Below are positions 1 through 18,066 of a stretch of 64,000 bases of DNA, in pieces. Location: contig CAAGEP010000006.1 in NCBI GenBank assembly GCA_900768875.1, positions 71,950-135,949 of the forward strand, written 5' to 3'. Source of the stretch: Alphaproteobacteria bacterium. GTDB lineage: Bacteria; Pseudomonadota; Alphaproteobacteria; CAAGCB01; CAG-977. The translations under genes and the position numbers were made by a program. Position 1 is the stretch's first letter, and the number at the start of each line of letters is the position of its first letter. Below the pieces are notes generated by a model. It did not search any database. It had not been told where the DNA came from and worked only from the letters and a program-made list of their open reading frames with translations.

Positions 1-593
1 CGCGGCTGTGCGGATTTGTCTGCTTCGCTTTTATAACAACGGCGACCGTTTTAACGCTGTCTTTGTTGCATTTGACGGGGGAATTCGAGGTTGATGCTAC
101 GCTGGCGGTCAATCCGACGTATTCCGAAAATCTGGCGTACTTTCAACCGCTGCATCCCGATATGCCCGCGATGGATTTGCTGTCCGAAATGTTTGTTCGC
201 CAGTTTATTACGGTGTCAAACACACTCTACAAGGATACGCACGAAATGATGCGCATGTGGGGGAGCGGCGGCATGGTTCGCTATATGTCGTCCCCGAGAA
301 TTTATGGCGAATTTTGGGACAGAGTCAGCAAAACGATGTTTGATGGCGATGCGCCGCCTTTGGCAACGATGGAGCCGCATATCCGCCGCATTTTGAAAGA
401 AGGCTGGAACAGCTGGCAAATCTTCTTTGAAACGCGCACGATGAAAAACAATATCGAAGATCCCAAAATCGAACATTGGATTGCAACGATTCAGTTTAGG
501 TATTATAGTTATAATGCGGTTATGTTCCGGCGGTTGCGCAACCCGATGGGCTTTACGGTAACGCAGTACCATTTGGCGCGGCAGAAAAGATGA
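1..593 (+). CDS. virB8: T4SS VirB8 family protein, 5'-truncated by window edge (frame open to position 3; hydrophobic TM-like segment CGFVCFAFITTATVLTLSLL then periplasmic NTF2-like domain)
   Basis: The frame is open from the window start, with no stop from nt 3. The periplasmic domain shares the signature F[RW]WG..G..RWMSSP..Y with the downstream VirB8 paralog. The stop overlaps the next start (ATGA). Confidence 0.7.
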   Translation, partial: RLCGFVCFAFITTATVLTLSLLHLTGEFEVDATLAVNPTYSENLAYFQPLHPDMPAMDLLSEMFVRQFITVSNTLYKDTHEMMRMWGSGGMVRYMSSPRIYGEFWDRVSKTMFDGDAPPLATMEPHIRRILKEGWNSWQIFFETRTMKNNIEDPKIEHWIATIQFRYYSYNAVMFRRLRNPMGFTVTQYHLARQKR

Positions 594-802
594 GGAAAAC
601 GGTTATGAAAACGAATTCGGTTAAAAAAGCTTTGATTGTCGCCGTGCTGACGGCAGGCGTTGCCGCGTGCGGATCGATTTTTGAAAAAGAACCCGTCGGA
701 ATCGGCAAGGATATTTCCGAACTCAAACGGTCGCCGTGCGCTTGCATGATGCTGAAGCTGCCTGCGGGACTGCCCGACTGGATGTTGAGCGCGCAAGGAT
801 AA
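590..802 (+). CDS. virB7: small lipoprotein, VirB7-like (signal peptide + lipobox VAAC)
   Basis: 70-aa ORF with an N-terminal signal peptide and an LTAGVAAC|GS lipobox. It sits between two virB8 paralogs, as in Rickettsiales rvh clusters. Its ATG overlaps the upstream stop (ATGA). Confidence 0.5.
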   Translation: MRKTVMKTNSVKKALIVAVLTAGVAACGSIFEKEPVGIGKDISELKRSPCACMMLKLPAGLPDWMLSAQG

Positions 803-808
803 TGCCCC

Positions 809-1588
809 ATGCCCAGACCGATGAAAAAACAACAGCCTTTGGTGCCGAAAAAAGACGCGGACGCGCCTTCTTCCGTTAATGCGAAAGATGACGCTCAGCC
901 CGTCAAAGCGCGCCCGAAAGCACAGGCGGCGCCTTCAAACGACGAGCTGACGGTTGATTTGTTGCGTGAACGCCGCTATTTGTGGACGGCGCGCGCGTTT
1001 GCGATTGTGTCGGCGGTGGCGCTGTGTCTGAATCTGGTTCTGATGATTGCGATGGCCAACTTGATGCCTTTGAAACGCGCCGAACCGTTTTTGCTGACAT
1101 TCCAAAGCAAGGACGATCAGGTTGTCCGCATCCGGCCGTTGGAATCCGATTTGGGGGCGAACGATTTGCTGACGGAAGCGATGATTCGCCAATATGTCCT
1201 GTTGCGCAACACGATGACCGCAGATATCGAAGAAATGTCGTTCCGTTGGGGCAATGACGGGCCTTTGCGCTGGATGTCGTCGCCCAATGTTTACAAACAA
1301 TTCGCCAAAACAATCAAAGACTGGCTGGCGCGCGTCAAATTGGAAGGCTTGACCCGCGAAGTCCGCATTGAATCCGTTGTTCGACAACAGGATATTTGGG
1401 TGGTTTATATTGTAACGCGCGATATGCTGCCCGAAGCCGACCAGCCCGTAACACAGCGTTGGCGCGTGAAACTGAAAGTCCGTTATTTCGGAATGTCGTC
1501 CAAAAACGAAGTCAAGTACGTTGACAGACTGAAAAATCCGTTGGGTTTTGTCGTGTCGGCTTATGCAATCGAAAGTGCCGCAGATTAA
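809..1588 (+). CDS. virB8: T4SS VirB8 (bitopic inner membrane protein; second paralog)
   Basis: 259 aa with an N-terminal cytoplasmic region, one TM (FAIVSAVALCLNLVLMIAMANL) and a periplasmic NTF2-like domain paralogous to ORF 1..593. Confidence 0.75.
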   Translation: MPRPMKKQQPLVPKKDADAPSSVNAKDDAQPVKARPKAQAAPSNDELTVDLLRERRYLWTARAFAIVSAVALCLNLVLMIAMANLMPLKRAEPFLLTFQSKDDQVVRIRPLESDLGANDLLTEAMIRQYVLLRNTMTADIEEMSFRWGNDGPLRWMSSPNVYKQFAKTIKDWLARVKLEGLTREVRIESVVRQQDIWVVYIVTRDMLPEADQPVTQRWRVKLKVRYFGMSSKNEVKYVDRLKNPLGFVVSAYAIESAAD

Positions 1589-1600
1589 AGAAGGTGTGCC

Positions 1601-3124
1601 GTGAAAAACAGTATTTCAATTCGTCTTTTCGCATTTGTTTTAACGGCGGCGGTCGCCGTGTCGGGGCGGGTTTCGGCTCAGCAGTCTGCCGCGCGCGAAT
1701 CCATGGATGCCGCCATTGAGCAGTCGAACGGCCAATATTCCGAAATCGACATGCCGTATCTGTGGTCGTTGGGCATGCAGCAAAAAGCGTGGAACAAACC
1801 GTTGGAACATTTGGGTGAAGGACAATCCAAACCGGGATATTCCCGCTATTTCTGGTCGCCCGATTTGGTACTGCCTTTGCGTATTCGCGAAGGAATGCAC
1901 ACGTTGATTAACTTTCCGTCGTGGGAATACATTGACAATGTGTTTTTGGGCAACGCCAGCGCATTCGGATCGCAAAAAGTCGCCGCAAACGCTTTGATGG
2001 TTTTTGCAAACAATCCGGAACTGGTCGGCATGGATACGAATATGATTGTGTTCGGCCGGTCGGGCAACCGCTATGTTTTTTATTTGCGCAGCGAAACGTT
2101 CAATGCGGACAGAATTACAAACGCCGTCGTCGATATTATTGTCAACGACAGTAAATTCGTTCCAGACGATTCGGGAAAAACCCCTTTTTCGGCGGGTGAG
2201 ACGGGTGTCGGCGCAACACCCGCGGGGGCGGCTTCCGTCGGCGGAACGGCAGGCAAAGCCAAGAGCAAAAAGCTGAAATTTTTTGATCCGATGAACGACT
2301 GGTTGGAAGATTTGGACGTCGATCCCGAAAAACTGAAATTCGATATTGATGTTTTCGTTCCCAATCCGGAAGACATGGAAATCGCCCCCGAACGCGTATG
2401 GCGCGACGAGATTTTCACATATATTGACTTGGGGCCGAAAGCGTTATCAATGACGCAGCGTCCGATTGTCAATCTGCTGGTGCAGGGCAGTGAAGTCCCT
2501 GTCGGTTTCAGAACGCGCGGGCCGAACGGACGGCTGATTGTGGTCGAAGGAATCGGCGATTTGGTGCTGCGAAACGGCAAACGGCTGTTGTGCTTGAAAA
2601 TTCGCAAAGATCCGAGCTTTGGCACGGATTGGGTCGAATATGACCAATCCGTACAGCCCGCTTATTCACCCGCGGGAATGAGAACCCCCGGCGTTTCGCC
2701 CCGCGGCGCGAACGAAATCGCCAATGAACAGGCGTCGTCTCAAATGGCGCGGCAGACGATAATACAGCGGGCGCAACAGCAGCAGATGTCCGACAATCTG
2801 TCTTTGACGGGCAGGAACGCACAGATTTCGGCGTCGTTTGCGAATCGCTATCGCCGTGCGGCGACGGAAACGATTGCGATTGAATTGGGCGCGGATGCTG
2901 AAATTTCGGCTCTGGAACGGAAGTGGGACAATATTTACCGCAAAAACAAAGACTTGCTTGCAAACTACGAGCCGTATTATTCGGTTGACGCGGTTGCCGA
3001 AGGCGAAACAAAGGATTTATTCCGTTTGCGCATCGGGCCCGTCGGATCGATTAAGGACGGCGACAAGTTGTGCAATCAGCTGGGTCGGCGCGGTGTCACC
3101 TGTATTGTGGTGCGGACGCAATGA
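1601..3124 (+). CDS. virB9: T4SS VirB9/TrbG/CagX family protein with C-terminal SPOR-like domain (507 aa)
   Basis: Signal peptide (AVSGRVSA|QQ). A VirB9 C-terminal-domain-like region (ERVWRDEIFTYIDLGPKA ... PIVNLLVQGSEVPV). The C-terminal ~70 aa resemble a SPOR repeat (DLFRLRIGPVGSIKDGDKLCNQLGRRGVTCIVV). Its stop overlaps the virB10 ATG (ATGA). Confidence 0.6.
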   Translation: MKNSISIRLFAFVLTAAVAVSGRVSAQQSAARESMDAAIEQSNGQYSEIDMPYLWSLGMQQKAWNKPLEHLGEGQSKPGYSRYFWSPDLVLPLRIREGMHTLINFPSWEYIDNVFLGNASAFGSQKVAANALMVFANNPELVGMDTNMIVFGRSGNRYVFYLRSETFNADRITNAVVDIIVNDSKFVPDDSGKTPFSAGETGVGATPAGAASVGGTAGKAKSKKLKFFDPMNDWLEDLDVDPEKLKFDIDVFVPNPEDMEIAPERVWRDEIFTYIDLGPKALSMTQRPIVNLLVQGSEVPVGFRTRGPNGRLIVVEGIGDLVLRNGKRLLCLKIRKDPSFGTDWVEYDQSVQPAYSPAGMRTPGVSPRGANEIANEQASSQMARQTIIQRAQQQQMSDNLSLTGRNAQISASFANRYRRAATETIAIELGADAEISALERKWDNIYRKNKDLLANYEPYYSVDAVAEGETKDLFRLRIGPVGSIKDGDKLCNQLGRRGVTCIVVRTQ

Positions 3125-6100
3125 ACGAAGAATTACTCAGCTCATCGGATAAATACTTGAAGAAATCCAACCGGACGTTGCTTCTGGTTGGAATCTTCGC
3201 GTTTCTTGCTTTTTTCATAGGCTTGATTGTTTTGTTGAGCGGCGGGGAAGCGCAAAAGGAAGACGCAAAAGTAACCGTTGAGGGAGCCAGCGACGCTTTT
3301 ACCGACATTACGGGGGGCGATGCCGACAACTTTTCCAATTTCGACGAACCGTCAACGGGCGTCAAACTGAACGTTACGCCCGATGTCATGCGCTTTGATC
3401 AAGTCGTGCTCGGCACTTCCGCGGAAGGGGCGCTGACCATCACGCCGTCATCGGGGCGCGTCAGCATTATGGAAATCGCGTTTGAAAACAACCCCGACGA
3501 CGGATTCAAACTGGAAAGCAAGTGTAAGCCGAACGATATTCTGACAACGGATTTGTCCTGTACCGTCATTGTCAAATGGGAACCGAAAACCGCACGGACG
3601 ATTCAATCGAATCTGGCGATTAAATGGCGTGATGAAACGGCTGGCGCAATCGGAAAAACGGTATTGGTTTCCGTGTCCGCCATGGCTATCGACACCAGCC
3701 TTTGCGGCGTGTGCGACGAAGCTCCGGGCGGTGGCACGACCGCCGATCAACTGCGTCAGAAAGGACGTTTGATTTTAGGACCCGACGGCAAACCTATCGG
3801 TTATGCGGACGAAAACGGTGTCGTGTACGGGTTGGACGGCAAACGCATCGGCACGTTGCGTCCCGACGGAACGGTTGTTGACGATCAGGGGTACATTATC
3901 GGTGTGGCGGAAGGCGTGCGCGTCGCTTTGGGGCCCGACGGCAGCATTATCGGAACGATTTTGCCCGACGGACGCGTCATTGACAAAGACGGCAATCTTA
4001 TCGGCTATGCTTTGCCCGACGGCACGATTGTGGATTTGAACGGCAATGTCATCGGCGCGGCAATGCGCACGGGAACGGCCGTCGACAAAAACGGCAATCC
4101 TATCGGCCGCGTGATGCCCGACGGACGTGTACTGGACGAAAACGGCAACCTTATCGGCTACTTGAATCCCGACGGCACGATTGTGGATTTGAACGGAAAC
4201 ATCATCGGTTCGGTGATGCCTTCGGGGGCGGTCGTCGATGCTTTGGGGCGCGTTTTGGGCATTGTCATGCCCGACGGTTCGGTGGTTGACAAAGACGGCA
4301 ATGTTATCGGCCGCGTTTTACCCAACGGGTTCGTGGTTGACAAAGACGGCAACATCATCGGCCGCGTGATTAAAGAAGGGCTTGCCATCGGTCCGGGGTG
4401 CCGCCTTATCGGCCGTGTCAGCACGGACGGGTCGGTCATGTCTTCCAACAAGCAGGTCGGACGGCTGACCGCGGCGATGATTGTGGTTGACATGGGCAAC
4501 AATCCCGTCGGCGGCTATGTGCAAGAAGGCGCGGTTTTGGGATGGGATGGAAAGACAATCGGCAAAATCGATTCCGACGGCCAGCCCGTCAGCTTCAAAG
4601 GCGATTTGCTGGGGTGCTTGCTGCCCAACGCGGCGGTTGTCAATGACAGCGAGGAGATGATAGGCGCTTTGCGGCCTTACGGAACGGTTGTCGGAACGCG
4701 CTGCGGTTTTGAAGGCCGCGTGATGCCCGACGGTTCCGTCGTTAACAACGGCGAACTCAAAGGGCGCATCTTGCCGGATAAAACCTTTTTGCGCGAAGAC
4801 GGAACCATCGGCGGCGCGATTGCCCGCAGTAACGTCGGGCTTGCGCCGGGATGCGCCAATTTGGGCTTTGCCAACATCGACGGACAAATGATGACCACCA
4901 AAGGCGAATTTGTCGGGTGTTTGGCGGCAAACGGCGATGTGCTGGATGACAAGTATGTCGTTTTGGGGCGTGTGTTGGATACGGGAACCGCTATCGGCGT
5001 TGACGGCAGAATGATCGGCATTTTGGACAGCGCGGGCAAAATTGTCGATAAAAACGGAAAAGTTTTGGCGTGCATGGATCCCGATTACGTCGCGATTTCC
5101 GAAACCAAAAACGAACCTGTCGGCATGGCGACCCCGCAGGGCGGCGTTTTGGACCGTGACGGCCGGACGGTCGGATGGGTGATGCCCGACGCGTCGGTCA
5201 AAAACACGCAGGGAGGTTCTGTCGGCAAAACATTGGGGGACGCCTCTGTTGTCGATATGACAGGGCAAAAAGTCGCCCGCGTCGTTCCGTTCCAAGGATT
5301 GCCGTTAAAGGCGGCGTGCGAACCCGTCGGGCGGATTATTATGGACGGGCGTATTGTCGACAAAGACTTTAAACGGACGGCGTATTTAAGACTGGACGAT
5401 TCTTTGGCGGACGAACAGGACAATTTCATCGGACGTTTGGCAACGGCTCAGCACGGCATCGATTCCCGCAGCACTTATGTGGGGGCGATTGACGAAACGG
5501 GGGCTTTGATTAACCAGGCGGGTGAAAAAGTCGGCTGCTTGCGTCCGGACAATCTGTTCGTCGACTCGGACGGAAAATTCAAAGCCGCGCAAATGCTCAC
5601 GGGGCTGGCCGTCAATCCGCAAACCGATTTGTACGCCCGCGGCGATTCAATCGGCAAAGCGTTAAACCTCAAAGGAACGGATTTTGTCGGTAAAACGTTG
5701 GTCAGCACTTACATTCAAAATGACGATAAAACGGTAACGGGCGGCATCATTCCCGCCGGAGCGGCGGTTTTGGACATTAAAACCAGCAAGCCCATCGGCC
5801 GTTTGCTGCCGGACGGCAATGCGGTGAATTTGCAAAGCCGTTTTCTGGGGCGGTTGAAAATGCCGGGCGGCGACGTTGTGGATCGCGCCGGAACCGTTGT
5901 CGGCCGCGTTTTTGTGGGATTGAGGCAAGTGATTGGGCCGAACGGCGAAATTTTGGGCGTCGTTTTGTCCGACGGAACGGTGATTGACGCCAACGGGCAA
6001 GTCATCGGACAGGCGGATTTGCAAGGAAAAGTCGTCGATAAGGACGGCAATGTCATCGGCGAAGTTCTGCCTGTGGGCATGCCTGTTTTGGGGGCGGACG

Positions 6101-9100
6101 GCAAAATCATCGGCTATGTCGGATTAAACGGCGAAATCGTTGACGAAGACGGCAAACCCGTGTTGGGCGAAGACGGCAAGCCTTTGCGTTACCGTTCGGG
6201 CGGAATGGTGGTCAGTGCGGACGGAAAAGTGGTTGGCTTTACGCTGAATGACGGCTTGGCGATCGGCTTTGACAACAAAGTGCTGGGAACAATCAACGCT
6301 CAAGCCGTTGTTCGGAACGCCAACGGGACGGACTTGGGGACGATGCAGGTTGACGGCACCGTCGTTGACACAATGGCGACGCCTATCGGTCGCGGACTGA
6401 TTAACGCCGTTCCCGTCGGCAGGCAATGCCGCGGGTTAGGGGCTGTGAATTCAGAGGGCAAAGTTGTTTCCGCTTCGGGCGACGAACTGGGGTTTGTAAC
6501 GTTTGACCGAGCCGTTTTGGATGCGACAAATACACAAATCGGAATTGTACTCAGCCCCGATTCCGTGATTGACAGACCGTGCAATATTACGGGCGAAATC
6601 GGGCGCGACGGTAAATTCCGCAGCGCAAGCGGCAACGAAACCGGCTGTGTGGATTTCGACGGCATCGTAACGAACAAAAACACGAAACGCATCGGAACGG
6701 TGATTTTGAAAGGACCTGTCATCGGCTTTGACGGCAAAGTGTTCGGTAAAGTCGTTCCCAACGGCGAAGTGTTGGATGCAGACGGCAATGTTTTGGGATG
6801 CTTCGGCGCAGACGGCGCGATTTACAACAAAAGCAACACGCTGACGGGCGTGTCCGATTTAATGAAATACGCCGTTGACGCCAAAGGAAAAACCGTTGCC
6901 AGAATCGTCGGCGGAAAATACGGCGTTTCACGGGAAAACGACAAATTGGTCGGGATGCTTGAAGGCGGAAGATTGCTGGATGACAAAGGGACGGAAATCG
7001 GGTTGCCCGTTCCCGCGGGCAGACGCGTCATCGGTCGTGACGGGCGCATTGTCGGCACGGTTCTGCCCAAAGGCGGTGTTGCGGCCGATAACGGTGAAAA
7101 CAAAGGCTTTGTAACATCCCGCATGCGCGCTTTGACACCCGACAACAAATTCTTGGGGCGTGTCGTTCCCGTCGGAGAGGAGTGTAAGGACAAAGGCGGA
7201 CAAGTCGTCGGCAAAGTTCATTTTGACGGTACGATTGTCGATGAAAACGTCGAAGTGCTGGGGCGTATTATGGCGAACGGTACGGCATTAAGCAATGCGG
7301 GAACGTATTTGTGCTCCATTTCTCCGATGAGCGTTGTTGACGATGTGTGGACAGGCAAAGCCGTGTATGATGCCAACGGAAATCTTATCGGTTATGTCGA
7401 CGAAGATGGAAACGTTCGCGATGCCAGCGGAAAAATCATCGGCCGCGTCATGCCCGACGGAACGGTCGTCGATTTGAACGGCAACACAATCGGTTATGTG
7501 GCTTTGGGCGAACCCGTGTATGATGCCAACGGCAAGCTTATCGGTTTTGTCGGCGAGGACGGCATTGTCCGCGATGCGCAAGGCAACGTTATCGGCACTT
7601 TGCGTCCCGACGGGACGGTCGTTGACGAAAACGGCAACATTATCGGAAAAACGTTGGGAACGCCGCTGTACGACGCTGACGGAAATCTTATCGGTTTCGT
7701 CGGCAAAGACGGGGTGGCGCGCGATTTGAACGGCAATGTGCTGGGGGTTCCCGTGTTTGACGAAAACGGCAAGCTTATCGGTTTTGCGGATAAAGACGGA
7801 AAGGTTCGCGATTTGAAAGGTAATGTCATCGGCACTTTGCGTCCCGACGGGACGGTCGTTGACGAAAACGGCAACATTATCGGAAAAGCGTTGGGAACGC
7901 CGCTGTACGACGCTGACGGAAATCTTATCGGTTTTGTCGGCAAAGACGGGGTGGCGCGCGATTTGAAAGGCAATGTGCTGGGGGTTCCCGTGTACGACGC
8001 CAACGGCAAGCTTATCGGTTTTGCGGATAAAGACGGAACGGTTCGCGATTTGAAAGGCAATGTCATCGGCAAAGTTCTGCCTGACGGGACGGTCGTTGAT
8101 TTGAACGGCAATGTCATCGGCAAAATCGATTCCAGGGCGATGCAGGCCAAAAAGAATGTTCGGATTGCGGTCGGCCGCGACGGCAAATTTTTGGGCATTG
8201 TCGGTGAAGACGGCTTTGTCCGCGACGCGAACGGCAATATCATCGGCAAAGTTCTGCCCGACGGAACGGTCGTCGATTTGAACGGCAACGTTATCGGTTC
8301 CGTGATAGAAGGCGAGCCGCTTTACGATGAAAACGGAAACCTTATCGGCGTTGTCAAAGCCGACGGAACGGTTGTCGATTTGAACGGTAATGTGCTGGGG
8401 CATTTGAACGCTGACGGCGAAATCGTTGACAAGGACGGCAATGTTATCGGCATATGGAAAAACGGCAAGCTGACCATGCAGGGCGACAAGCTTAAACCGC
8501 GATTCGCTTTTGATAAAAACGGCAACAGAATCGGCATCGTCCTGCCCGACGGAACGGTTATTGACGCGAACGGCAACATCATCGGCCATGTGGACGAAAA
8601 CGGCAACGTCATCGGTCTGGACGGCGAAATTATCGGCTCTTTGACCGACGGCGGCGGAAAAGAAGGCAAGGACAAAGATAAAGTTTCCGTTTTCGGAAAA
8701 TTCGATCCGGATTCCTACCGATACCGCGGTAAAGGTTTGGGCGCGGGCGGCGGCACGGGCAAGGGCGAACGCTATGACCCGTCGCGGATTAAAGAGCTGC
8801 GCGCGAAACAAATGGCTTACCGCAAAATGATTCGTCCGGGATTGGGCGCGGGATTGGAGGAGGATTCCGAATCGGCGTTGCTGAAAAAACAGCACAGAGC
8901 CAACAACTGGAGCAGCATCAACATTAATAAAAACGTATCGTCCTATCGTGTAAAGATGGATAATATGATTTTAGCGGACAAAGCCATTCCCGCCGTATTG
9001 ACGCGGTCAATCGATTCTTTGTACAGCGATGTTCCCGTTTCCGCCGTTGTGGAACGCAACGTGTATTCGGAAAGCGGCCGGAAAGTGATTATTCCCGCGG

Positions 9101-9993
9101 GCAGCCGTTTAATCGGTGAACAGGGAAACGCAGGGGCGGCTGAAGAAAACAGTATTGCCGTAAAAATGCAGATTAAATGGACGCGTTTGATTCGTCCCGA
9201 CGGTGCGGCGTTCAAGTTTGAAGACGGTGCGTCGGGCGACGCGCAGGGGCGCGCCGGTGTTTCGTCGTACGTCGATTTGCAGCTGATTCGGAAATTCGGG
9301 ACGCCGTTGTTGCAAAGTACGGTTTCCTCCGCGCTGTTGTGGGCGATGTCTTCCAATTCAAAACCCGAAGTCGGCGACAACGGCGAAATCGCGCTCAGCG
9401 ACCGTCAGCAGGCGGCGCAGGACGCGCGTTCTCAGTTTTCGGACGATATGAGATCGATGTTTGATTCCATTTTTGCCATGACGTCCAAAATTCCGGCTCG
9501 TTCGTTTGTTCCGTCGGGAACGCGGATTACCGTTTTCGCCAAAGAGGATTTATGGCTTCGTTCCGAAGTGGAAGATAACGAAGTCAATCCTATGCTTGGA
9601 AAGGGATTGGTAAACGAAAAAATGGGTACCGAAGAAGACTTGCGCCTGCAAAAACAAAAGATGAAAGACAAAGGCGAGGATATGGGCGGCTTGACGCAGG
9701 AACAAGTAAATCAAAACACTATGATAGCGGGCGGGACTCCGAACAATCCGCAAATGCAGCAGCAGATTTACTACAACAGCTACGGTCAGCCCGTTATGCC
9801 GCAACAAGGCGGATTGGCGCCTCAGCAAGTGCCGGCCGGATATTATGCCGCACCGCCGGGATACTACGGTTATGCTCCGCCGCCGCAGTCGCAACTGCTG
9901 ACTCCGCCGGCGCCGCAACAGCCGAAGCCGCAGAGCGCGCCGGCGCTTCAAGAATCGGTCAAGGATGAAGATCCCGCCCCCGAATTGTTCTGA
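3121..9993 (+). CDS. virB10: giant T4SS VirB10/TrbI family protein (~2290 aa) with N-terminal TM anchor, ~1600-aa tandem-repeat insertion, VirB10 C-terminal domain and Q/P/Y-rich tail
   Basis: The ATG at 3121 overlaps the virB9 stop. A TM helix follows (LLLVGIFAFLAFFIGLIVLLSG). The C-terminal region (YRVKMDNMILADKAIPAVLTRSIDSLYSDVPVSAVVERNVY...IIPAGSRLIGEQ...) matches the VirB10/TrbI fold signature. The gene sits in canonical virB9-virB10-virB11 order. Confidence 0.75.
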   Translation: MNEELLSSSDKYLKKSNRTLLLVGIFAFLAFFIGLIVLLSGGEAQKEDAKVTVEGASDAFTDITGGDADNFSNFDEPSTGVKLNVTPDVMRFDQVVLGTSAEGALTITPSSGRVSIMEIAFENNPDDGFKLESKCKPNDILTTDLSCTVIVKWEPKTARTIQSNLAIKWRDETAGAIGKTVLVSVSAMAIDTSLCGVCDEAPGGGTTADQLRQKGRLILGPDGKPIGYADENGVVYGLDGKRIGTLRPDGTVVDDQGYIIGVAEGVRVALGPDGSIIGTILPDGRVIDKDGNLIGYALPDGTIVDLNGNVIGAAMRTGTAVDKNGNPIGRVMPDGRVLDENGNLIGYLNPDGTIVDLNGNIIGSVMPSGAVVDALGRVLGIVMPDGSVVDKDGNVIGRVLPNGFVVDKDGNIIGRVIKEGLAIGPGCRLIGRVSTDGSVMSSNKQVGRLTAAMIVVDMGNNPVGGYVQEGAVLGWDGKTIGKIDSDGQPVSFKGDLLGCLLPNAAVVNDSEEMIGALRPYGTVVGTRCGFEGRVMPDGSVVNNGELKGRILPDKTFLREDGTIGGAIARSNVGLAPGCANLGFANIDGQMMTTKGEFVGCLAANGDVLDDKYVVLGRVLDTGTAIGVDGRMIGILDSAGKIVDKNGKVLACMDPDYVAISETKNEPVGMATPQGGVLDRDGRTVGWVMPDASVKNTQGGSVGKTLGDASVVDMTGQKVARVVPFQGLPLKAACEPVGRIIMDGRIVDKDFKRTAYLRLDDSLADEQDNFIGRLATAQHGIDSRSTYVGAIDETGALINQAGEKVGCLRPDNLFVDSDGKFKAAQMLTGLAVNPQTDLYARGDSIGKALNLKGTDFVGKTLVSTYIQNDDKTVTGGIIPAGAAVLDIKTSKPIGRLLPDGNAVNLQSRFLGRLKMPGGDVVDRAGTVVGRVFVGLRQVIGPNGEILGVVLSDGTVIDANGQVIGQADLQGKVVDKDGNVIGEVLPVGMPVLGADGKIIGYVGLNGEIVDEDGKPVLGEDGKPLRYRSGGMVVSADGKVVGFTLNDGLAIGFDNKVLGTINAQAVVRNANGTDLGTMQVDGTVVDTMATPIGRGLINAVPVGRQCRGLGAVNSEGKVVSASGDELGFVTFDRAVLDATNTQIGIVLSPDSVIDRPCNITGEIGRDGKFRSASGNETGCVDFDGIVTNKNTKRIGTVILKGPVIGFDGKVFGKVVPNGEVLDADGNVLGCFGADGAIYNKSNTLTGVSDLMKYAVDAKGKTVARIVGGKYGVSRENDKLVGMLEGGRLLDDKGTEIGLPVPAGRRVIGRDGRIVGTVLPKGGVAADNGENKGFVTSRMRALTPDNKFLGRVVPVGEECKDKGGQVVGKVHFDGTIVDENVEVLGRIMANGTALSNAGTYLCSISPMSVVDDVWTGKAVYDANGNLIGYVDEDGNVRDASGKIIGRVMPDGTVVDLNGNTIGYVALGEPVYDANGKLIGFVGEDGIVRDAQGNVIGTLRPDGTVVDENGNIIGKTLGTPLYDADGNLIGFVGKDGVARDLNGNVLGVPVFDENGKLIGFADKDGKVRDLKGNVIGTLRPDGTVVDENGNIIGKALGTPLYDADGNLIGFVGKDGVARDLKGNVLGVPVYDANGKLIGFADKDGTVRDLKGNVIGKVLPDGTVVDLNGNVIGKIDSRAMQAKKNVRIAVGRDGKFLGIVGEDGFVRDANGNIIGKVLPDGTVVDLNGNVIGSVIEGEPLYDENGNLIGVVKADGTVVDLNGNVLGHLNADGEIVDKDGNVIGIWKNGKLTMQGDKLKPRFAFDKNGNRIGIVLPDGTVIDANGNIIGHVDENGNVIGLDGEIIGSLTDGGGKEGKDKDKVSVFGKFDPDSYRYRGKGLGAGGGTGKGERYDPSRIKELRAKQMAYRKMIRPGLGAGLEEDSESALLKKQHRANNWSSININKNVSSYRVKMDNMILADKAIPAVLTRSIDSLYSDVPVSAVVERNVYSESGRKVIIPAGSRLIGEQGNAGAAEENSIAVKMQIKWTRLIRPDGAAFKFEDGASGDAQGRAGVSSYVDLQLIRKFGTPLLQSTVSSALLWAMSSNSKPEVGDNGEIALSDRQQAAQDARSQFSDDMRSMFDSIFAMTSKIPARSFVPSGTRITVFAKEDLWLRSEVEDNEVNPMLGKGLVNEKMGTEEDLRLQKQKMKDKGEDMGGLTQEQVNQNTMIAGGTPNNPQMQQQIYYNSYGQPVMPQQGGLAPQQVPAGYYAAPPGYYGYAPPPQSQLLTPPAPQQPKPQSAPALQESVKDEDPAPELF
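3775..8650 (+). repeat. intragenic tandem array (~90 copies) of a degenerate 17-19-residue unit V-[LM]-P-D-G-x-V-V-D-x-x-G-N-[VI]-I-G-x within virB10; includes near-identical 237-bp direct repeats (about 7591..7827 vs 7828..8064)
   Basis: Read directly from the translation (e.g. VMPDGSVVDKDGNVIGR / VLPNGFVVDKDGNIIGR). At the DNA level a 79-codon block is duplicated with only a few mismatches. Confidence 0.85.
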
Positions 9994-10009
9994 GTGAAAG
10001 GAATAGAAA

Positions 10010-10987
10010 ATGGCAACAGACGCGTTTCAAGTGTTAAAGTCGGTTTTGCGCTATTTGTCCTATTGGTACGAACAGGACAATGTGGAAGAAGTCGCCATTA
10101 ACCGTCCCGATGAAATCTGGCTGCGTTTGCGTGGGCGCCGCGCGTATCCGTGGGCTTGTCAGCAGGATAAAAACCTGTCCAGAACGTACTTGATGGATTT
10201 GATGCACATTATCGCCAACACTTTTGAACTGCCGTTCGACCCCGAACAGGGATCCCCCGCCGTATACGCGACTTTGCCGGGCGATCACCGTTTTACGGGG
10301 ATTGCGGGCAAAAATGTGATGTACGATAACGACGATTTGACGGGCGGCATCGCCATGTGCGTCCGCGTTCATTCCGACGGCGTTAAATTCGGACTGGGCG
10401 ATTACGGGTTGAAAGCGGGTGAACGTCTGCAAAAACTGAACAAGCTGAAAGAGGTCGAAAACCCCGAAGACCCGTATGAACGTTTAATCCTGTCCATCAA
10501 ACGCGGCGATCACATTCTGGTTTCCGGTGCGACGGCGACAGGTAAAACGACATTTTTGAACAACCTCTTAACGATTCTGGATTCTCATAAACGCGTCATT
10601 ACGATTGAAGATACGCGCGAATTGATTGTTCCGCATCCGAATCACGTTCATTTGGTTTTGTCGCGTACCGAACAAACGAACACGATGACGTATCCGAAGC
10701 TGATTGACCTTGTCGTGCGTTTTACGCCCGACGCGATTATCGGCGGTGAAATTTCGACGGCGAACGCGGGAGCTTTGTGGGAATTGATGGGATCCGGTCA
10801 CGACAACTGCTTTGCGACCATTCACGCCGAAAATTCGGAAGCCGCGTACAAAGCGTTCACCGACCGCATTTTGCACTGTTATCCGACCATTGACCGCGAA
10901 AAAACGATTGCCGAAATGCACGACAAACTGCGTGTCGTGCAAATCAACCGTCAGGGCAACATCCGCGCGGTGACCGAAGTGACTTAA
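10010..10987 (+). CDS. virB11: T4SS ATPase VirB11
   Basis: 325 aa with Walker A GATATGKTT and the VirB11/CpaF family layout. It lies immediately downstream of virB10. Confidence 0.85.
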   Translation: MATDAFQVLKSVLRYLSYWYEQDNVEEVAINRPDEIWLRLRGRRAYPWACQQDKNLSRTYLMDLMHIIANTFELPFDPEQGSPAVYATLPGDHRFTGIAGKNVMYDNDDLTGGIAMCVRVHSDGVKFGLGDYGLKAGERLQKLNKLKEVENPEDPYERLILSIKRGDHILVSGATATGKTTFLNNLLTILDSHKRVITIEDTRELIVPHPNHVHLVLSRTEQTNTMTYPKLIDLVVRFTPDAIIGGEISTANAGALWELMGSGHDNCFATIHAENSEAAYKAFTDRILHCYPTIDREKTIAEMHDKLRVVQINRQGNIRAVTEVT

Positions 10988-11394
10988 CCGTTTGTTTCGG
11001 GGGCGGACTGTTGTTCGGCCGCTTGCGCCCGATGCGCGCTTTGTTCGTTCAGTCCGCGCGCGATGTTCATGTTGATGCTGATAAGAATATCCAGCGCCTT
11101 GGCTTCGGGATTGGCCATAACGGTAAAAGTGTGTTTGAAAATAAAGTGCGCCAGATTGAACACGTTTTGTTTGATTTCAAAGGGCAGCGGATTGGATTCC
11201 TCGGTCGCGTCGCTGACCAGAATCGTCCAAAGCTTGCGGTTCAAATCCAACGCTTCCTGCAGCTGTTCTTTGGAAACGGGCCAATTTTCCTTGCACGCGT
11301 TCAGACGCGACGCGGTGCGGACCAAAGCGCGGGCTTCCAGTTCATTTTGCGGCAACGCAGACGATTCTGCCGCGGCATAGGGATTCGTGTTCAT
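10984..11394 (-). CDS. FlaF-like flagellar biosynthesis regulator (tentative)
   Basis: 136 aa. It resembles alphaproteobacterial FlaF (ELEARALVRTASRLNAC...NRKLWTIL...NPLPFEIKQNVFNLAHFIFKHT). Assignment is from memory of the family, not a search. Confidence 0.45.
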   Translation of the reverse strand: MNTNPYAAAESSALPQNELEARALVRTASRLNACKENWPVSKEQLQEALDLNRKLWTILVSDATEESNPLPFEIKQNVFNLAHFIFKHTFTVMANPEAKALDILISINMNIARGLNEQSAHRAQAAEQQSAPETNG

Positions 11395-12440: not shown

Positions 12441-15400
12441 TCATTCCGCGCCGAATTTTTCTTCCGCCATTTTTTGCGCGGACACATAGTCGAATTTACC
12501 TGTTCCCAAAATGGGCGGTTCTTTGACAATGATGATTTTCGACGGCGTGCCGAGGTCGTTCAGTCCCACTTGCTTGATATACGCGCGGATTTGCGCCGCA
12601 TCGGCGTTTTCCGCTGTGGTAATCAGCACCAGCTGTTCGCCTTTTTTCACGTCGGCAATGGCGACGACGCCCTGAACCGCGCCTTCGTACAATTTTGCCA
12701 GTTCTTGCTCGATTGCCGTCAGCGAAATCATTTCGCCGCCGATTTTCGCAAAGCGTTTGGCGCGCCCTTTAATCGCGACAAAGCCGTCTTTGTCAACCGC
12801 GACGATGTCGCCCGTGTCATGCCAGCCGTCGGCGGGCGGCTGCAAGACGCAGGGTTTGTCCGCTTTCATATAGCCTTGCATGATATTGTCGCCGCGCACG
12901 AACAGGCGTTTGCCTTCGGTAATGCCGGGGACGTCTTCCAATCGGGCTTCCAACCCCGGAACCAAACGTCCGACCGTGCCGGCTTTGATGTACATCGGAG
13001 TATTCACGGCAATCAAGGGGGCGGCTTCGGTCGCGCCGTAGCCTTCCAAAATGCGGATGCCGAATTTTCTGCTCCACAATTCCGCGGTGGTTTCTTTCAG
13101 TTTTTCAGCGCCGACAATCGCATAACGCAGGGCAAAGAAATCGTACGGGTGAGCCGACGCCCCGTATCCCGCAAAGAACGTGTCCGTGCCGCACAAAATC
13201 GTCGCGTTCGTGGCGTACACCAGTTCGGGAACGATGCGATAGTGCAAAGGCGACGGATAATAGAACGTTTTGATGCCCGAAAGCGTTGTCAACAGCGTCC
13301 CGATGCCCAGCCCGAACGCGTGGAACATCGGCAAAGCGTTAAAGAATACGTCGTTCGAGTTCAAATCCAAAATGCTCAAAGCCTGATATCTGTTCGCTTG
13401 GAAATTGATGTGCGACAGCAAAACGGCTTTGGGCATGCCTTCCGACCCCGACGTGAACAAAATCGCGGCGGTTTGGTCGGCGGCGTGTTTGGGTTTGCGG
13501 CTCAGCAGGTAATCGGTAATGCCGCGGAATTTGTCTTCGCCCGAAACCTGCTGGGCAAAGTCTTCCATGTAAACCAGATTGATGCCCGCGTCGCGAATGG
13601 CGGCTTCCAATTTTTCCAGTTTGCCGCCTTCGATGAACTTGTGCGACGTCACGACCGTTTTCAAGCCGACCGTTTTAATACAGGACAGAACTTGAGCGAT
13701 ACCGCTGGAAAAGTTCAGCATGGCGGGGACTTTGTCGCGGCTTTGCAGGGCAAAGAACACAACCAGATTCGCCAAAACGTTCGGCAGCAGAATCCCCAAT
13801 CGTTCTTCATTCGGCAACAGGCGATCAAACGTGCGCCCCAAGACATAGCTTTTCAAAATCAGTGTTTTGTAGCGCAAAGGTTTGCGGCTGATATCTTCGG
13901 CGATGATATGGTGCTTGCCGTGGATTTTCTGCGCGTTCAGCAATCCCGTGAACAGATGTTCGTTGATTTTGGATGACGCGTACATCATTTCCGACATCAT
14001 CGTGTACAGCTGCAGCGAAACTTCGTGATTGCGCAGACGTCCCGTCAAAGCGGGATCAATGTCGAACTTTTTGTGCGGCATGATGTTGATGGTGATTTTG
14101 GGGAAGTATTGCGTTTTAAACTTTGTTTTCAGCAAAGAAAACTTGGAATACTGCGCCCCGTTGATGCGCACGGGCAGAATGTTCGCGTTGGCTTTTTCCG
14201 CGACGATGCCCGCGCCTTCGTACACTTTCATCAAAGCGCCCGTAACGCTGATGCGCTGTTCGGGGAAAATCATGACTTTGTTGTTGCGCTTAATCAAGTC
14301 GATTAACGAACGCAAAGACAGCGGATTGTTCAAGTCCAAAGGATACAAGTCCACCATCAGCGAAAAGAATCGCGCAAACCAGCGGTTTTCCCATTCGGGC
14401 TTGATGACGAACGTGATTTTTTCGGGCATGAACGCCGCAATCAGCAGACCGTCCAGCAAAGACGTGTGGTTGGCGACAATCAAAACGCGCTTGCCCGATT
14501 CTTGAAAATTGGGAAGCCCTTTGACGGTCACGCGGAACAGCGTTTCCAAAATCGTTTGCGCGATGGAACGCACCAAAGCCGCGGGCAGAACAGAGCAGTT
14601 GTACACCGACACGACAAAGCTTGCCAAAGCGAACAACAGGAAAATGGCGGAAATGCCCAAGTCAAAATGACGCAGAACGGCAACAATCAACGCCACGACG
14701 GCAATGCCCGCCGCGTTGATGATGTTGTTGGCGGCAAAAACGGCGGCGCGGTTGGCGTCGGTCGCTTTTTTCTGAATCAAGTTGCTTAACGGCGTGATAT
14801 ACATGCCGCAGCAAAATGCCAGCAGGAAAAAGAACAAGCAGAACACGGCGGGACGGAATCGGGTGATGAATTCGACGAAATCAACGCGTTCCGCAGGCGT
14901 TCCGTATCCCAAAGTCAAAACGGACAAGGCCAGAAAACACACGGCGATGCCCAGCGTGCTGATAGGAACGTAAGTGGTGTGGACAACGCCGCGCAGCAAA
15001 CGCGTGCAGTATGCAATACCGACGCCGACGCCTGCCGCGTACAAGCTCAGCAAAAACGCGGCGGCAACGGCATCCGTGTTGAACACCTGCGTAATCAGCG
15101 GATAAATCAGCAAAACAACCAGCAAACCCAGCGACCAAAACCACGTCGCGCCCAAAATGCTGCGGTAAATCAGCGGATAGCGGCGCACGGTGCGCAGGGT
15201 GGAGCGAATGCCTTTTAAAATGTTGCGGTCGAATTTCTGCAAATCGGGTTCGGGAGCTTCTTCTGCAACGGCGCGGGTGGCCAGATAACTGGCGAGCGAC
15301 AGCAGAATCAAGCACAGCGCGGCAAGGCGGACAGGCAGTAAAACGCCGAATAAAATCGCGACAACGATGCTGACATACGTTGATTTCGACGTATAGGCGT

Positions 15401-15821
15401 CACTGCCGATGAAGTCTTTTTCATCCAATCGTTCGGGCTGTAAAGCGTAGCGGATGGGACCGAAAAACGCGGACAAAGTGCCGAACAAAACGGGCAGGAT
15501 AATCAACAGTCCCGCGTTGTTGGCAAAGAAAACCAACCCTGCGACAAGCATCAAAACCAGTTCGACCAGTTTGACGGAACGGGTCAGCTTGATGCGTCCG
15601 TATTTTTTCGCCAACAAAGTGGCGCGCGCCGAAAACAAAAAGAACGGCAACAGCAAAAGCCCCGCAATCAGGTTTGACGGATCGGGCGATTGTTGTGTGA
15701 TGCGCACGGCGATAATCGTCAGCAAAGCGATTTTGAACAGGCTGTTCGTCAGTCCGTCAAACAAAACGGCAAATAGGCTTTTTGCGGCTTTGACCAAGTT
15801 TTCTGTGGAATGGGAAGACAT
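12441..15821 (-). CDS. aas: LplT-Aas fusion: MFS lysophospholipid transporter + PlsC-type acyltransferase (HxxxxD) + acyl-ACP synthetase (AMP-binding)
   Basis: 1126 aa. N-terminal multi-TM MFS region. NHTSLLD acyltransferase motif. AMP-binding motif TSGSEGMPKAV. Confidence 0.75.
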   Translation of the reverse strand: MSSHSTENLVKAAKSLFAVLFDGLTNSLFKIALLTIIAVRITQQSPDPSNLIAGLLLLPFFLFSARATLLAKKYGRIKLTRSVKLVELVLMLVAGLVFFANNAGLLIILPVLFGTLSAFFGPIRYALQPERLDEKDFIGSDAYTSKSTYVSIVVAILFGVLLPVRLAALCLILLSLASYLATRAVAEEAPEPDLQKFDRNILKGIRSTLRTVRRYPLIYRSILGATWFWSLGLLVVLLIYPLITQVFNTDAVAAAFLLSLYAAGVGVGIAYCTRLLRGVVHTTYVPISTLGIAVCFLALSVLTLGYGTPAERVDFVEFITRFRPAVFCLFFFLLAFCCGMYITPLSNLIQKKATDANRAAVFAANNIINAAGIAVVALIVAVLRHFDLGISAIFLLFALASFVVSVYNCSVLPAALVRSIAQTILETLFRVTVKGLPNFQESGKRVLIVANHTSLLDGLLIAAFMPEKITFVIKPEWENRWFARFFSLMVDLYPLDLNNPLSLRSLIDLIKRNNKVMIFPEQRISVTGALMKVYEGAGIVAEKANANILPVRINGAQYSKFSLLKTKFKTQYFPKITINIMPHKKFDIDPALTGRLRNHEVSLQLYTMMSEMMYASSKINEHLFTGLLNAQKIHGKHHIIAEDISRKPLRYKTLILKSYVLGRTFDRLLPNEERLGILLPNVLANLVVFFALQSRDKVPAMLNFSSGIAQVLSCIKTVGLKTVVTSHKFIEGGKLEKLEAAIRDAGINLVYMEDFAQQVSGEDKFRGITDYLLSRKPKHAADQTAAILFTSGSEGMPKAVLLSHINFQANRYQALSILDLNSNDVFFNALPMFHAFGLGIGTLLTTLSGIKTFYYPSPLHYRIVPELVYATNATILCGTDTFFAGYGASAHPYDFFALRYAIVGAEKLKETTAELWSRKFGIRILEGYGATEAAPLIAVNTPMYIKAGTVGRLVPGLEARLEDVPGITEGKRLFVRGDNIMQGYMKADKPCVLQPPADGWHDTGDIVAVDKDGFVAIKGRAKRFAKIGGEMISLTAIEQELAKLYEGAVQGVVAIADVKKGEQLVLITTAENADAAQIRAYIKQVGLNDLGTPSKIIIVKEPPILGTGKFDYVSAQKMAEEKFGAE

Positions 15822-16722: not shown

Positions 16723-18066
16723 ATGGATGAATGGCACAAAAGTTTGATTGACGACATCGGTGCTTTGCCCGAATACCGGTCGTACGGGTCGGTTTCGGCG
16801 GTCAAAGGCATGCTGGTCGAAATGACGGGCGCGCGTTCGGAACTGTCCGTCGGCGACCGCTGTACGATTTTGGCGCGCGCGGGCAAAAAAGTCCCCGCCG
16901 AAGTCGTCGGCTTCAACGGCGGCAAAGTGCTGTTGATGCCGTTCGTGAACCTTGACGGCGTAGGCCCCGGAAACGAGGTTGATTTAAGCAACGCGCATCC
17001 CGTCTTGTATCCCGATATTTCTTGGCTGGGGCGGGTGATTAACGCCATGGGCGAACCCGTCGACGGCAAAGGTCCGTTGAAAAAAGGCAAGGTGCCGTGC
17101 TTGATTCACGCGTCGCCGCCGCCCGCCAATTCGCGCGAACGTGTCGCGGGCAAAGCCGATTTGGGCGTGCGGGCGATTAACACTTTTCTGACGCTGTGCA
17201 AAGGACAACGTATGGGCATCTTTGCGGGATCGGGCGTGGGCAAATCGTCGTTGATGGCGATGATGGCGCGGCATACGCAGCTGGATGTGACGGTGTTGGG
17301 GCTTATCGGTGAACGCGGACGCGAAGCGCGCGAGTTCATCGAGGACGATTTGGGCGTCGAAGGCATGAAGCGCAGTGTCGTCGTGGTGGCGACATCGGAC
17401 GAAAGCCCTTTGATGCGGCGGCAGGCGGCGTATGTCGCGATGACGGTCGCCGAGTATTTTCGCGATTTGCACAACAACGTTTTGTGCATGATGGACAGTA
17501 TTACCCGTTTCGCGATGGCGCAAAGGGAAATCAGTTTGTCCGCGGGCGAACCTCCGGCGACCAAAGGCTACACGCCGACGGTGTTTGCGGAACTGCCCCG
17601 TTTGCTGGAACGCGCGGGACCGGGGCGCATCGGGTCGGGGTCGATTACGGGGCTGTTCACCGTTCTGGTGGACGGCGACGACCACAACGAACCGATTGCC
17701 GACGCGGTGCGCGGCATTTTGGACGGTCACATCGTTTTGGAACGCGCGATTGCCGAACGCAACCGCTATCCCGCGGTCAACCTGCTGCGCAGTATTTCGC
17801 GTACCATGCCGGGGTGCAACTCGGACGAGGAAAACGCTCTTGTCAACCGCGCGCGCGCTTTGATTGCGACATACGAAGACATGGCGGAGCTGATTCGGTT
17901 GGGCGCGTACAAGCACGGGTCGAACGCGCAAGTCGACGAAGCGATTTTCTATTATGACAAGCTGGAAGCCTTTTTGTCGCAAAAGAAAAAGGAAAAAGTC
18001 GATTTTGCAACGGGCTATCAGCAGCTGAAGGACATTTTGTCGCAAAAGCCCGCCGGTGCTGAATAA
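16723..18066 (+). CDS. fliI: flagellum-specific ATPase FliI
   Basis: 447 aa with Walker A GSGVGKSSL and the FliI/T3SS ATPase family layout. Followed by fliJ with a 1-nt overlap (TAATG). Confidence 0.85.
   Translation: MDEWHKSLIDDIGALPEYRSYGSVSAVKGMLVEMTGARSELSVGDRCTILARAGKKVPAEVVGFNGGKVLLMPFVNLDGVGPGNEVDLSNAHPVLYPDISWLGRVINAMGEPVDGKGPLKKGKVPCLIHASPPPANSRERVAGKADLGVRAINTFLTLCKGQRMGIFAGSGVGKSSLMAMMARHTQLDVTVLGLIGERGREAREFIEDDLGVEGMKRSVVVVATSDESPLMRRQAAYVAMTVAEYFRDLHNNVLCMMDSITRFAMAQREISLSAGEPPATKGYTPTVFAELPRLLERAGPGRIGSGSITGLFTVLVDGDDHNEPIADAVRGILDGHIVLERAIAERNRYPAVNLLRSISRTMPGCNSDEENALVNRARALIATYEDMAELIRLGAYKHGSNAQVDEAIFYYDKLEAFLSQKKKEKVDFATGYQQLKDILSQKPAGAE

Follow-up and report, generated by a model that had tools for sequence, protein, structure and literature searches.

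A giant VirB10 homologue with an array of about 95 predicted beta-hairpins in an rvh-like type IV secretion locus of uncultured Alphaproteobacteria

We analyzed a stretch of 64,000 nucleotides (nt) from Alphaproteobacteria bacterium (assembly GCA_900768875.1, contig CAAGEP010000006.1, positions 71,950 to 135,949), hereafter called the window, in which a single gene at 3121..9993 (+) encodes a protein of 2,290 amino acids (aa) and 239.7 kDa. Its N-terminal transmembrane (TM) helix and its C-terminal TrbI domain are separated by a long array of 17-residue repeats that are predicted to fold as beta-hairpins. Judged by the TrbI match and by the position of the gene between virB9 and virB11, the product is a homologue of VirB10, the only subunit of the type IV secretion system (T4SS) that crosses both membranes and one that is thought to pass energy from the inner-membrane ATPases to the outer-membrane gate. 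An original prediction, made from the letters of the window without database searches, had named the gene a giant VirB10, and this identity held. Unless marked (-), all features given below lie on the forward strand of the window.

Domain layout and repeat array of the giant VirB10

The ORF (open reading frame) listing of the window showed an uninterrupted frame from 3070 to 9993 (+) with zero internal stops, and translation probably begins at 3121, where an ATG and the virB9 stop codon overlap as ATGA; this gives 2,290 codons and a stop. The single ORF of about 2290 aa that had been drawn from 3121 to 9993 was thus confirmed. Hydropathy placed a TM helix at aa ~19-39, behind a short cytoplasmic N-terminus of aa 1-18 (together 3121..3237); the maximum was 3.09 and the most hydrophobic 19-mer began at aa 20-21 (~nt 3175-3237), near the nt ~3190-3255 proposed originally. 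Because this is the sole strongly hydrophobic segment, the protein would, on hydropathy alone, have the bitopic inner-membrane topology, and an equivalent helix was found at aa ~18-25 in all full-length relatives.

At the other end, aa 1950-2146 (8968..9558) matched Pfam TrbI PF03743 with an E value of 7.8e-30 and 104.6 bits (cut-off 35) over profile positions 2-188 of 188, in agreement with the intact VirB10 domain expected at nt ~8940-9560. The NCBIfam models ComB10 (E 6e-29) and VirB10 (E 2.5e-27) matched the same domain, and the chains in the PDB that matched by sequence were ComB10 (4.6e-14), CagY, TrwE and the Xanthomonas VirB10. The ComB10 match, read as a sequence alignment only, extends across the segment that corresponds to the helix-loop-helix antenna projection. 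The equivalog-level models T4SS_VirB10 and ComB10 scored 95.7 bits (cut-off 220) and 101 bits (cut-off 300), and on these scores we regard the window protein as a divergent VirB10 member, not an equivalog.

In place of the usual Pro-rich periplasmic linker of VirB10, the protein carries an ASH domain and the hairpin array (3.8% Pro), and its Pro/Gln-rich stretch sits after the TrbI domain, not before it. The ASH/PapD-like (MSP-type) region, an immunoglobulin (Ig)-like beta-sandwich followed by a conserved CxxC motif (Cys 135, 147, 195, and 198), lies at 3367..3735, after the TM helix, and had been missed in the original prediction. The array itself spans aa 226-1835, and its 1,610 aa correspond to the insertion of about 1600 aa that had been placed between the TM helix and the TrbI domain. 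It opens with block A (aa 226-415, 3796..4365), which holds ~11 well-conserved 17-aa hairpin units (lag 17, z 16.7) and is matched by the Pfam models DUF3659 and Bflower. A degenerate hairpin array of ~58 periods follows (aa 416-1400, 4366..7320), recognized by its lag-17 autocorrelation (z ~10) and by structure prediction, and the array closes with block B (aa 1401-1835, 7321..8625), whose ~26 well-conserved hairpins are organized in a super-repeat of five hairpins (79 aa) and give the best Bflower_2 and Bflower stretches. By composition, a basic Gly/Lys-rich linker with a pI of 9.8 (aa 1836-1949, 8626..8967) leads from block B to the TrbI domain, and a Pro/Gln-rich tail (9559..9990) ends in ...PELF. 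This tail of ~144 aa is also rich in Tyr, and most relatives likewise have an aromatic residue at their very end ([LIM]F or Y), a feature reminiscent of the outer-membrane beta-signal.

Autocorrelation returned 17 aa as the top lag in 4/4 sub-regions of aa 226-1835 (z 10-17 versus shuffles), and this period was absent in the N-domain and weak in the C-terminal region (z 3.8, not the top lag). The unit is therefore one of 17 residues and not of 17 to 19 as first described. The array amounts to 94.7 periods, and the ~90 copies proposed originally stand as a count of periods, although only about half of them are well conserved: a loose repeat motif was counted 104 times, and a strict profile found 49 units, mostly in aa 226-415 and 1401-1835, the middle between blocks A and B being degenerate. 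The consensus reads [LM]-P-D-G-T-V-V-D-x-[ND]-G-N-[VI]-I-G. At the DNA level, TRF detected only one recent tandem duplication (7513..8099), with a period of 237 bp (79 aa, five hairpins), 2.5 copies and 90% matches; elsewhere the repeats are old and diverged. Within aa 1405-1835, four cysteines and two tryptophans are invariant among 29 relatives, and 14 further cysteines in the degenerate array (nt 4366-7320) recur at spacings of 22 and 51 (3 x 17) residues. These spacings suggest regular disulfides that would staple neighboring hairpins. Long antisense ORFs of up to 535 aa run over the repeat region, at 4318-5295 (-) and 7288-8895 (-) of the window, and ORFs of this kind lead gene callers astray.

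Pfam assigned the array to Bflower_2 (385.6 bits, cut-off 38, in 12 stretches), Bflower (196 bits, cut-off 25) and DUF3659 (112.9 bits), and the RHS/YD-repeat models RHS_repeat (Pfam PF05593) and TIGR01643 matched as well. Going by these profiles, the repeat is YD-like and belongs to sequence families that were already known. The beta-flower fold was described in 2023 from AlphaFold models as shallow barrels of 8, 10 or 12 strands and 4-, 5- or 6-fold symmetry, with [DNEQ]xxG at the hairpin tips, and the beta-flower families PF21784, PF21785 and PF21786 share a clan with the lipid-binding Tubby C-terminal domain. The tip motif is present in the window array, with D at position 8 in 46/57 units and G at position 11 in 53/57. 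Beta-flowers as described consist of one small domain of ~96 residues, and some are lipoproteins, whereas the window protein, likened to them by profile match, carries ~95 tandem hairpins inside a secretion subunit. The PDB held no match for beta-flowers or for the window array.

AlphaFold2 (AF2) modeled aa 1405-1835 (431 residues; alignment of 100 sequences) as all-beta with a mean local confidence (pLDDT) of 86.7 and a predicted TM-score (pTM) of 0.51, each unit forming a hairpin with strands of 5 and 3 residues. A second model of 590 residues reached a pTM of 0.69; the pLDDT of both models was 86-87, which agrees with the beta-strand-like unit read from the letters, and hairpins of the degenerate array were predicted with pLDDT >90 up to aa 640. 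The pTM values suggest that the modeled hairpins take up a defined, not a bead-like, arrangement. In Foldseek, the nearest local matches were Rhs/YD shells, teneurins, choline-binding repeats and the TcdA CROPs (E to 7e-17), with a global TM-score of ~0.1, indicating that the matches are local only, and a weak similarity to cell-wall-binding repeats and LytB_SH3 was also seen. The array resembles Rhs/YD proteins in local hairpin geometry and in the YDxxGN motif; it differs from them in its period of 17 and in lacking an Rhs core as well as any plug, protease or toxin domain, the repeat models alone giving matches.

Conservation, relatives and two-chain variants

The giant ORF is real and not an artefact: 5 independently assembled contigs encode an identical product of 2,290 aa, and the frame is open, which answers the concern raised originally about a misassembled array or a split frame. 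Orthologues with the same gene order were found in the metagenome-assembled genomes (MAGs) Alphaproteobacteria bacterium UBA6411 (2,205 aa) and UBA2903 (2,203 aa). The alignment of the three proteins was collinear across the array, and its sole long (>=5-aa) array gap corresponded to the 237-bp duplication, that is, to an extra 79-aa super-repeat in the window. Repeat identity was 90-99% to UBA6411 and 75-92% to UBA2903, compared with 96% and 81% for the TrbI domain, and the ratio of nonsynonymous to synonymous substitutions (dN/dS) was 0.06 and 0.155 for the repeats versus 0.06 and 0.126 for TrbI, at dS 0.55-0.89. Because repeat identity and dN/dS are like those of the TrbI domain, the array is coding and conserved unit by unit. 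On these estimates it is under purifying selection, unlike the repeats of CagY and DotG, which recombine.

Relatives were sought exhaustively with HMMER, and aa 1-1200 as query gave 585 representatives. They include at least 16 clusters at 50% identity whose members, of 1,930-2,406 aa, have a TM helix at aa ~20, the N-domain, the array and a C-terminal TrbI domain; these giants carry 34-58 strict repeat motifs and are 28-37% identical to the window protein, except for cluster P0241 (70%; 141 members, 2,201-2,202 aa among the members listed). The period was 17 in 17/17 full-length relatives, and the insert measured 1,566-1,830 aa in 15 of the 17 and 1,408 and 1,006 aa in the remaining two. None of the 10 giant clusters queried carries a name, and a literature search of incomplete coverage found no publication describing a giant hairpin-array VirB10. 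The giant VirB10s form a conserved, apparently undescribed family in uncultured Alphaproteobacteria, possibly of human-gut origin, as inferred from the accession series CCZ30385.1 and some sample labels (BRIT16-1 and MCDO18-1, for example).

With the C-terminal 300 aa as query, all matches were <=525 aa; the reading of these as close relatives of normal size was rejected, since many start inside hairpin repeats. Entries that begin within hairpins, among them P0002-P0004, P0008, P0009 and P0026, are fragments or truncated gene calls, and many of the 400-700-aa proteins entered in databases as "VirB10" are likewise truncated, their calls starting within the array. At one related locus (L003, 4321-8790 (-)), an antisense ORF of 1,489 aa was called in place of the true gene. 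Gene callers often truncate these genes or put antisense ORFs in their stead, which amounts to a systematic annotation problem.

The hairpin module is also found in other proteins. A search with block B returned many Bflower + TrbI proteins of 600-755 aa, which are common in databases. Three of these (P0125, P0127 and P0137; 735-753 aa) consist of an N-terminal TM helix, ~20 hairpins and a TrbI domain, and the P0125 gene lies directly after icmL/dotI and icmK/dotH. This icmL-icmK-icmE locus identifies P0125 as the DotG/IcmE homologue in a type IVB system. In Tad (Flp) pili, many CpaB/RcpC proteins bear a C-terminal array of the same hairpins (among them P0188, P0220 and P0237; Pseudomonas, Gilvimarinus and others). 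Judged by these matches, trans-envelope machines repeatedly carry the array on a periplasmic subunit (VirB10, DotG and CpaB).

In an abundant sister lineage, recognized by its VirB11 (P0530, 76% identical to the window VirB11 and present in 4,062 indexed blocks of the collection), two genes fill the interval between virB9 and virB11 (L010, L011, and L012 1973-9986). The first encodes 1,138 aa with the TM helix, the ASH domain and hairpins and ends in ...GYVLQEVAKNRRN; the second encodes ~1,520 aa that begin with a typical Sec signal peptide, MQTVIKSLV[T/M]ACLFLFLSASFARA followed by QE (cleavage between ...SASFARA and QE), and continue with hairpins and TrbI. This two-gene layout was identical in 3 assemblies, one of them a 1.85-Mb contig. 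A homologous split occurs in the AT-rich locus L005 (807-11494), where the first part ends in ...GYVLEEVAQNRRN and the second has a signal peptide cleaved between ...KAHA and SD; the split point is conserved, together with the motifs on either side of it, between the GC-49% and the AT-rich genomes. Because the second half carries a Sec signal peptide, the array is most readily placed in the periplasm. Taken at the level of gene structure, the split variants show that a covalent link from the membrane anchor to TrbI is dispensable.

Other frame breaks between repeat and TrbI regions were of a different kind. Those of L003 and L006 were rejected as splits, since they coincide with runs of N (scaffold gaps). 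In L004 (9990-10010), the repeat ORF and the TrbI ORF lie in different frames with a -1 shift at ...GCAATTTGATTGG, and in L005 (~10000-10023) the TrbI ORF is in another frame at a junction beside an A8 run, both with no assembly gap. These two junctions could stem from an error in sequencing, from a true split or from programmed frameshifting.

The secretion locus and its neighborhood

The locus reads virB8, lipoprotein, virB8, virB9-SPOR, virB10 and virB11. The first virB8 (1..593; Pfam VirB8) is cut by the window start and is called as 225 aa in L007, and the second (809..1588) matched Pfam VirB8 with an E value of 4.7e-22. Between them, a small lipoprotein ORF (590..802) has a signal sequence ending in the lipobox ...LTAGVAAC; it is VirB7-like by position and probably the VirB7 equivalent, and a small ORF occupies the equivalent position in L003, L004 and L009. 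The virB9 gene (1601..3124) encodes an unusually long protein of 507 aa with a CagX domain (E 1.7e-12) and a C-terminal, peptidoglycan-binding SPOR domain (aa 461-505, E 6.8e-5), a combination that is also present in the distant relative L009. The virB11 ATPase gene (10010..10987) matched Pfam T2SSE and, below the curated cut-off, NCBIfam VirB11 (E 2.3e-42). The order virB9-virB10-virB11 was likewise seen in L001-L005 and L009-L012, and the partial contig L006 showed the repeat ORF, the TrbI ORF and virB11 only.

This arrangement largely follows that of the Rickettsiales vir homologue (rvh) system, whose islet C in Rickettsia is ordered virB9a, virB8a, virB7, virB8b, virB9b, virB10, virB11 and virD4, with a VirB10 of 481 aa in R. 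typhi. Both loci are chromosomal and have a duplicated virB8 around a small lipoprotein gene, followed by virB9-virB10-virB11. They differ in that no virD4 follows virB11 and only one virB9 is found in the window, and in that the feature reported as peculiar to rvh is its long antenna projection and no giant linker.

The remainder of the window is ordinary chromosome, with genes for FliI, RNase E, an AmiC-like amidase, PBP1A, FtsK, IleRS, RuvB and others. Near the T4SS genes lie FlaF at 10984-11394 (-), a Pfam label on the gene called in L007/L008, and a FliI-type ATPase at 16723-18066 (+), and because of this pair the organism is probably flagellated. Further along, 12441-15821 (-) encodes an LplT-Aas-type fusion of 1,126 aa (MFS + acyltransferase + AMP-binding), and an ORF of 1,380 aa at 37595-41737 (-) had zero Pfam domains and a weak, partial NCBIfam match that is SMC-like (coiled-coil).

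What the array may do

The best reading, which we hold to be moderately probable, is that the array forms a rigid periplasmic scaffold of an expanded rvh-like T4SS. The window protein would be the VirB10 subunit of this chromosomal system, held in the inner membrane by its one N-terminal helix and ending in TrbI, a domain that lines the outer-membrane core complex in other systems. The Pro-rich linker would be replaced by the Ig-like ASH domain and ~95 beta-flower/YD-like hairpins of predicted fold (~166 kDa), which would lie in the periplasm between the inner-membrane helix and the outer-membrane-complex domain and fold into a rigid, disulfide-stapled body. Minimal T4SSs contain 14 VirB10 copies; at ~14 copies, a number assumed from such systems, >2 MDa of beta structure would stand between the membranes as a cage, ring or skirt around the channel, possibly tied to peptidoglycan via the SPOR domain of VirB9. 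The result would be an expanded core complex, analogous to those built with CagY in the Cag machine and DotG in the Dot/Icm machine. From the conservation of the array we infer that it may be a fixed part of the structure, with a size and an order of units that are important, and neither a floppy spacer nor an antigenically variable surface.

Several points weigh against such a scaffold. Ninety-five hairpins, if extended, would probably be far longer than the periplasm is wide; the geometry of the scaffold is guesswork, its 14-copy stoichiometry is assumed by analogy, and beta-flower repeats were without an assigned function in their description. The split variants, moreover, fit poorly with a role of VirB10 as an energy-transducing bridge, and the array could act otherwise entirely.

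One alternative is that the array is shown outside the cell, through or beside the channel, as an adhesin, a sheath or a domain for contact with host or prey, as proposed for the CagY repeats. CagY offers a precedent in its surface exposure and binding of a host receptor, exposure has been proposed for DotG, and the nearest local structural matches of the array are extracellular or cell-wall hairpin repeats, in keeping with the RHS_repeat and TIGR01643 matches. We nevertheless consider surface display distinctly unlikely, since those Foldseek matches are local at a TM-score of ~0.1, the array is N-terminal to the outer-membrane domain and hence on its periplasmic side, the Sec signal of the split variants delivers to the periplasm only, and neither diversifying selection nor rampant copy change was seen (dN/dS 0.06-0.16, one 79-aa indel among three genomes). 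The array might instead be a length-setting tether, a molecular ruler for an unusual envelope, or a spacer that binds peptidoglycan or lipid, without a discrete ring. The conserved insert length, the occurrence of the module on the trans-envelope connectors DotG and CpaB, the SPOR domain on VirB9, the weak similarity to cell-wall-binding repeats and LytB_SH3 and the place of the beta-flower families in the lipid-binding Tubby clan are all consistent with this; yet the unit-by-unit conservation and the conserved cysteines suggest specific packing, relatives with inserts of 1,006 and 1,408 aa exist, the split variants break any covalent ruler and no ligand-binding motif was identified in the array, and we find a tether or spacer somewhat unlikely.

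That the giant ORF arose by assembly or annotation error (repeat expansion, collapse or the fusion of two genes) or is a decaying pseudogene has a negligible likelihood. Repeats in short-read MAGs can indeed mis-assemble, frame breaks occur in L003, L004, L005 and L006, and gene mis-calls are frequent. Against this, five independent assemblies give one and the same product, the listed P0241 members are uniformly 2,201-2,202 aa long, and the array is mostly diverged at the DNA level and under strong purifying selection; the L003 and L006 breaks are runs of N, and the split of L010-L012 is clean, has its own signal peptide and occurs also on a 1.85-Mb contig.

Giant VirB10 homologues with repeat inserts at the same position are already known in CagY and DotG. 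CagY (Cag7, HP0527) of Helicobacter pylori has 1,927 aa, and the copy number of its repeats changes by recombination to tune function; like the window protein, it has a huge repeat region N-terminal to the VirB10 domain, and it belongs to an expanded core complex. Its repeats are given as alpha-helical, Cys-containing modules, with reference to Delahay 2008, and are unrelated in sequence to those of the window protein. The window repeats differ in being 17-aa beta-hairpins of nearly fixed order under purifying selection, and the window protein is longer and has an ASH domain; its array is predicted to be all-beta and is stable between genomes, and the protein matches CagY by sequence only within the VirB10 domain. 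DotG/IcmE shares the succession of TM helix, repeat region and TrbI domain, and the Legionella protein has 1,048 aa with pentapeptide repeats that are variable in number and recombine. The uncultured gammaproteobacterial DotG homologues P0125, P0127 and P0137 share the beta-flower/YD-like hairpin itself, with ~20 copies versus ~95 in the window protein, whose system is VirB/rvh-like (type IVA) and not Dot/Icm. The original prediction that no VirB10 of such size or with such a repeat had been described overlooked CagY and DotG, as well as the curated Pfam families of the repeat and the common Bflower + TrbI proteins of 600-755 aa; it was right in that the window protein is longer than either known giant. 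The window protein stands apart from CagY and DotG by its greater length, the other repeat fold, the ASH domain, the evolutionary stability of the array and the natural two-chain variants.

Taken furthest, and only tentatively, these data would define in a widespread, possibly gut-associated clade of uncultured Alphaproteobacteria a new class of expanded T4SS, in which a megadalton periplasmic lattice of beta-flower hairpins is built from one chain or from two that are exported separately and covalent coupling of the inner to the outer membrane is dispensable. The expanded Cag and Dot/Icm machines partly owe their size to repeat-bearing VirB10 homologues, whose repeat regions are mostly unresolved. 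The window family would be a third, independent and larger expansion of VirB10, and it differs from the other two in useful ways, namely, in its repeat fold, in strict purifying selection at near-constant size and in the natural splits between anchor and outer-membrane domain. The role of such arrays and the importance of covalent coupling thereby become directly testable, and the orphan beta-flower fold would gain its first clear cellular context, as a periplasmic part of the trans-envelope machines of VirB10, DotG and CpaB.

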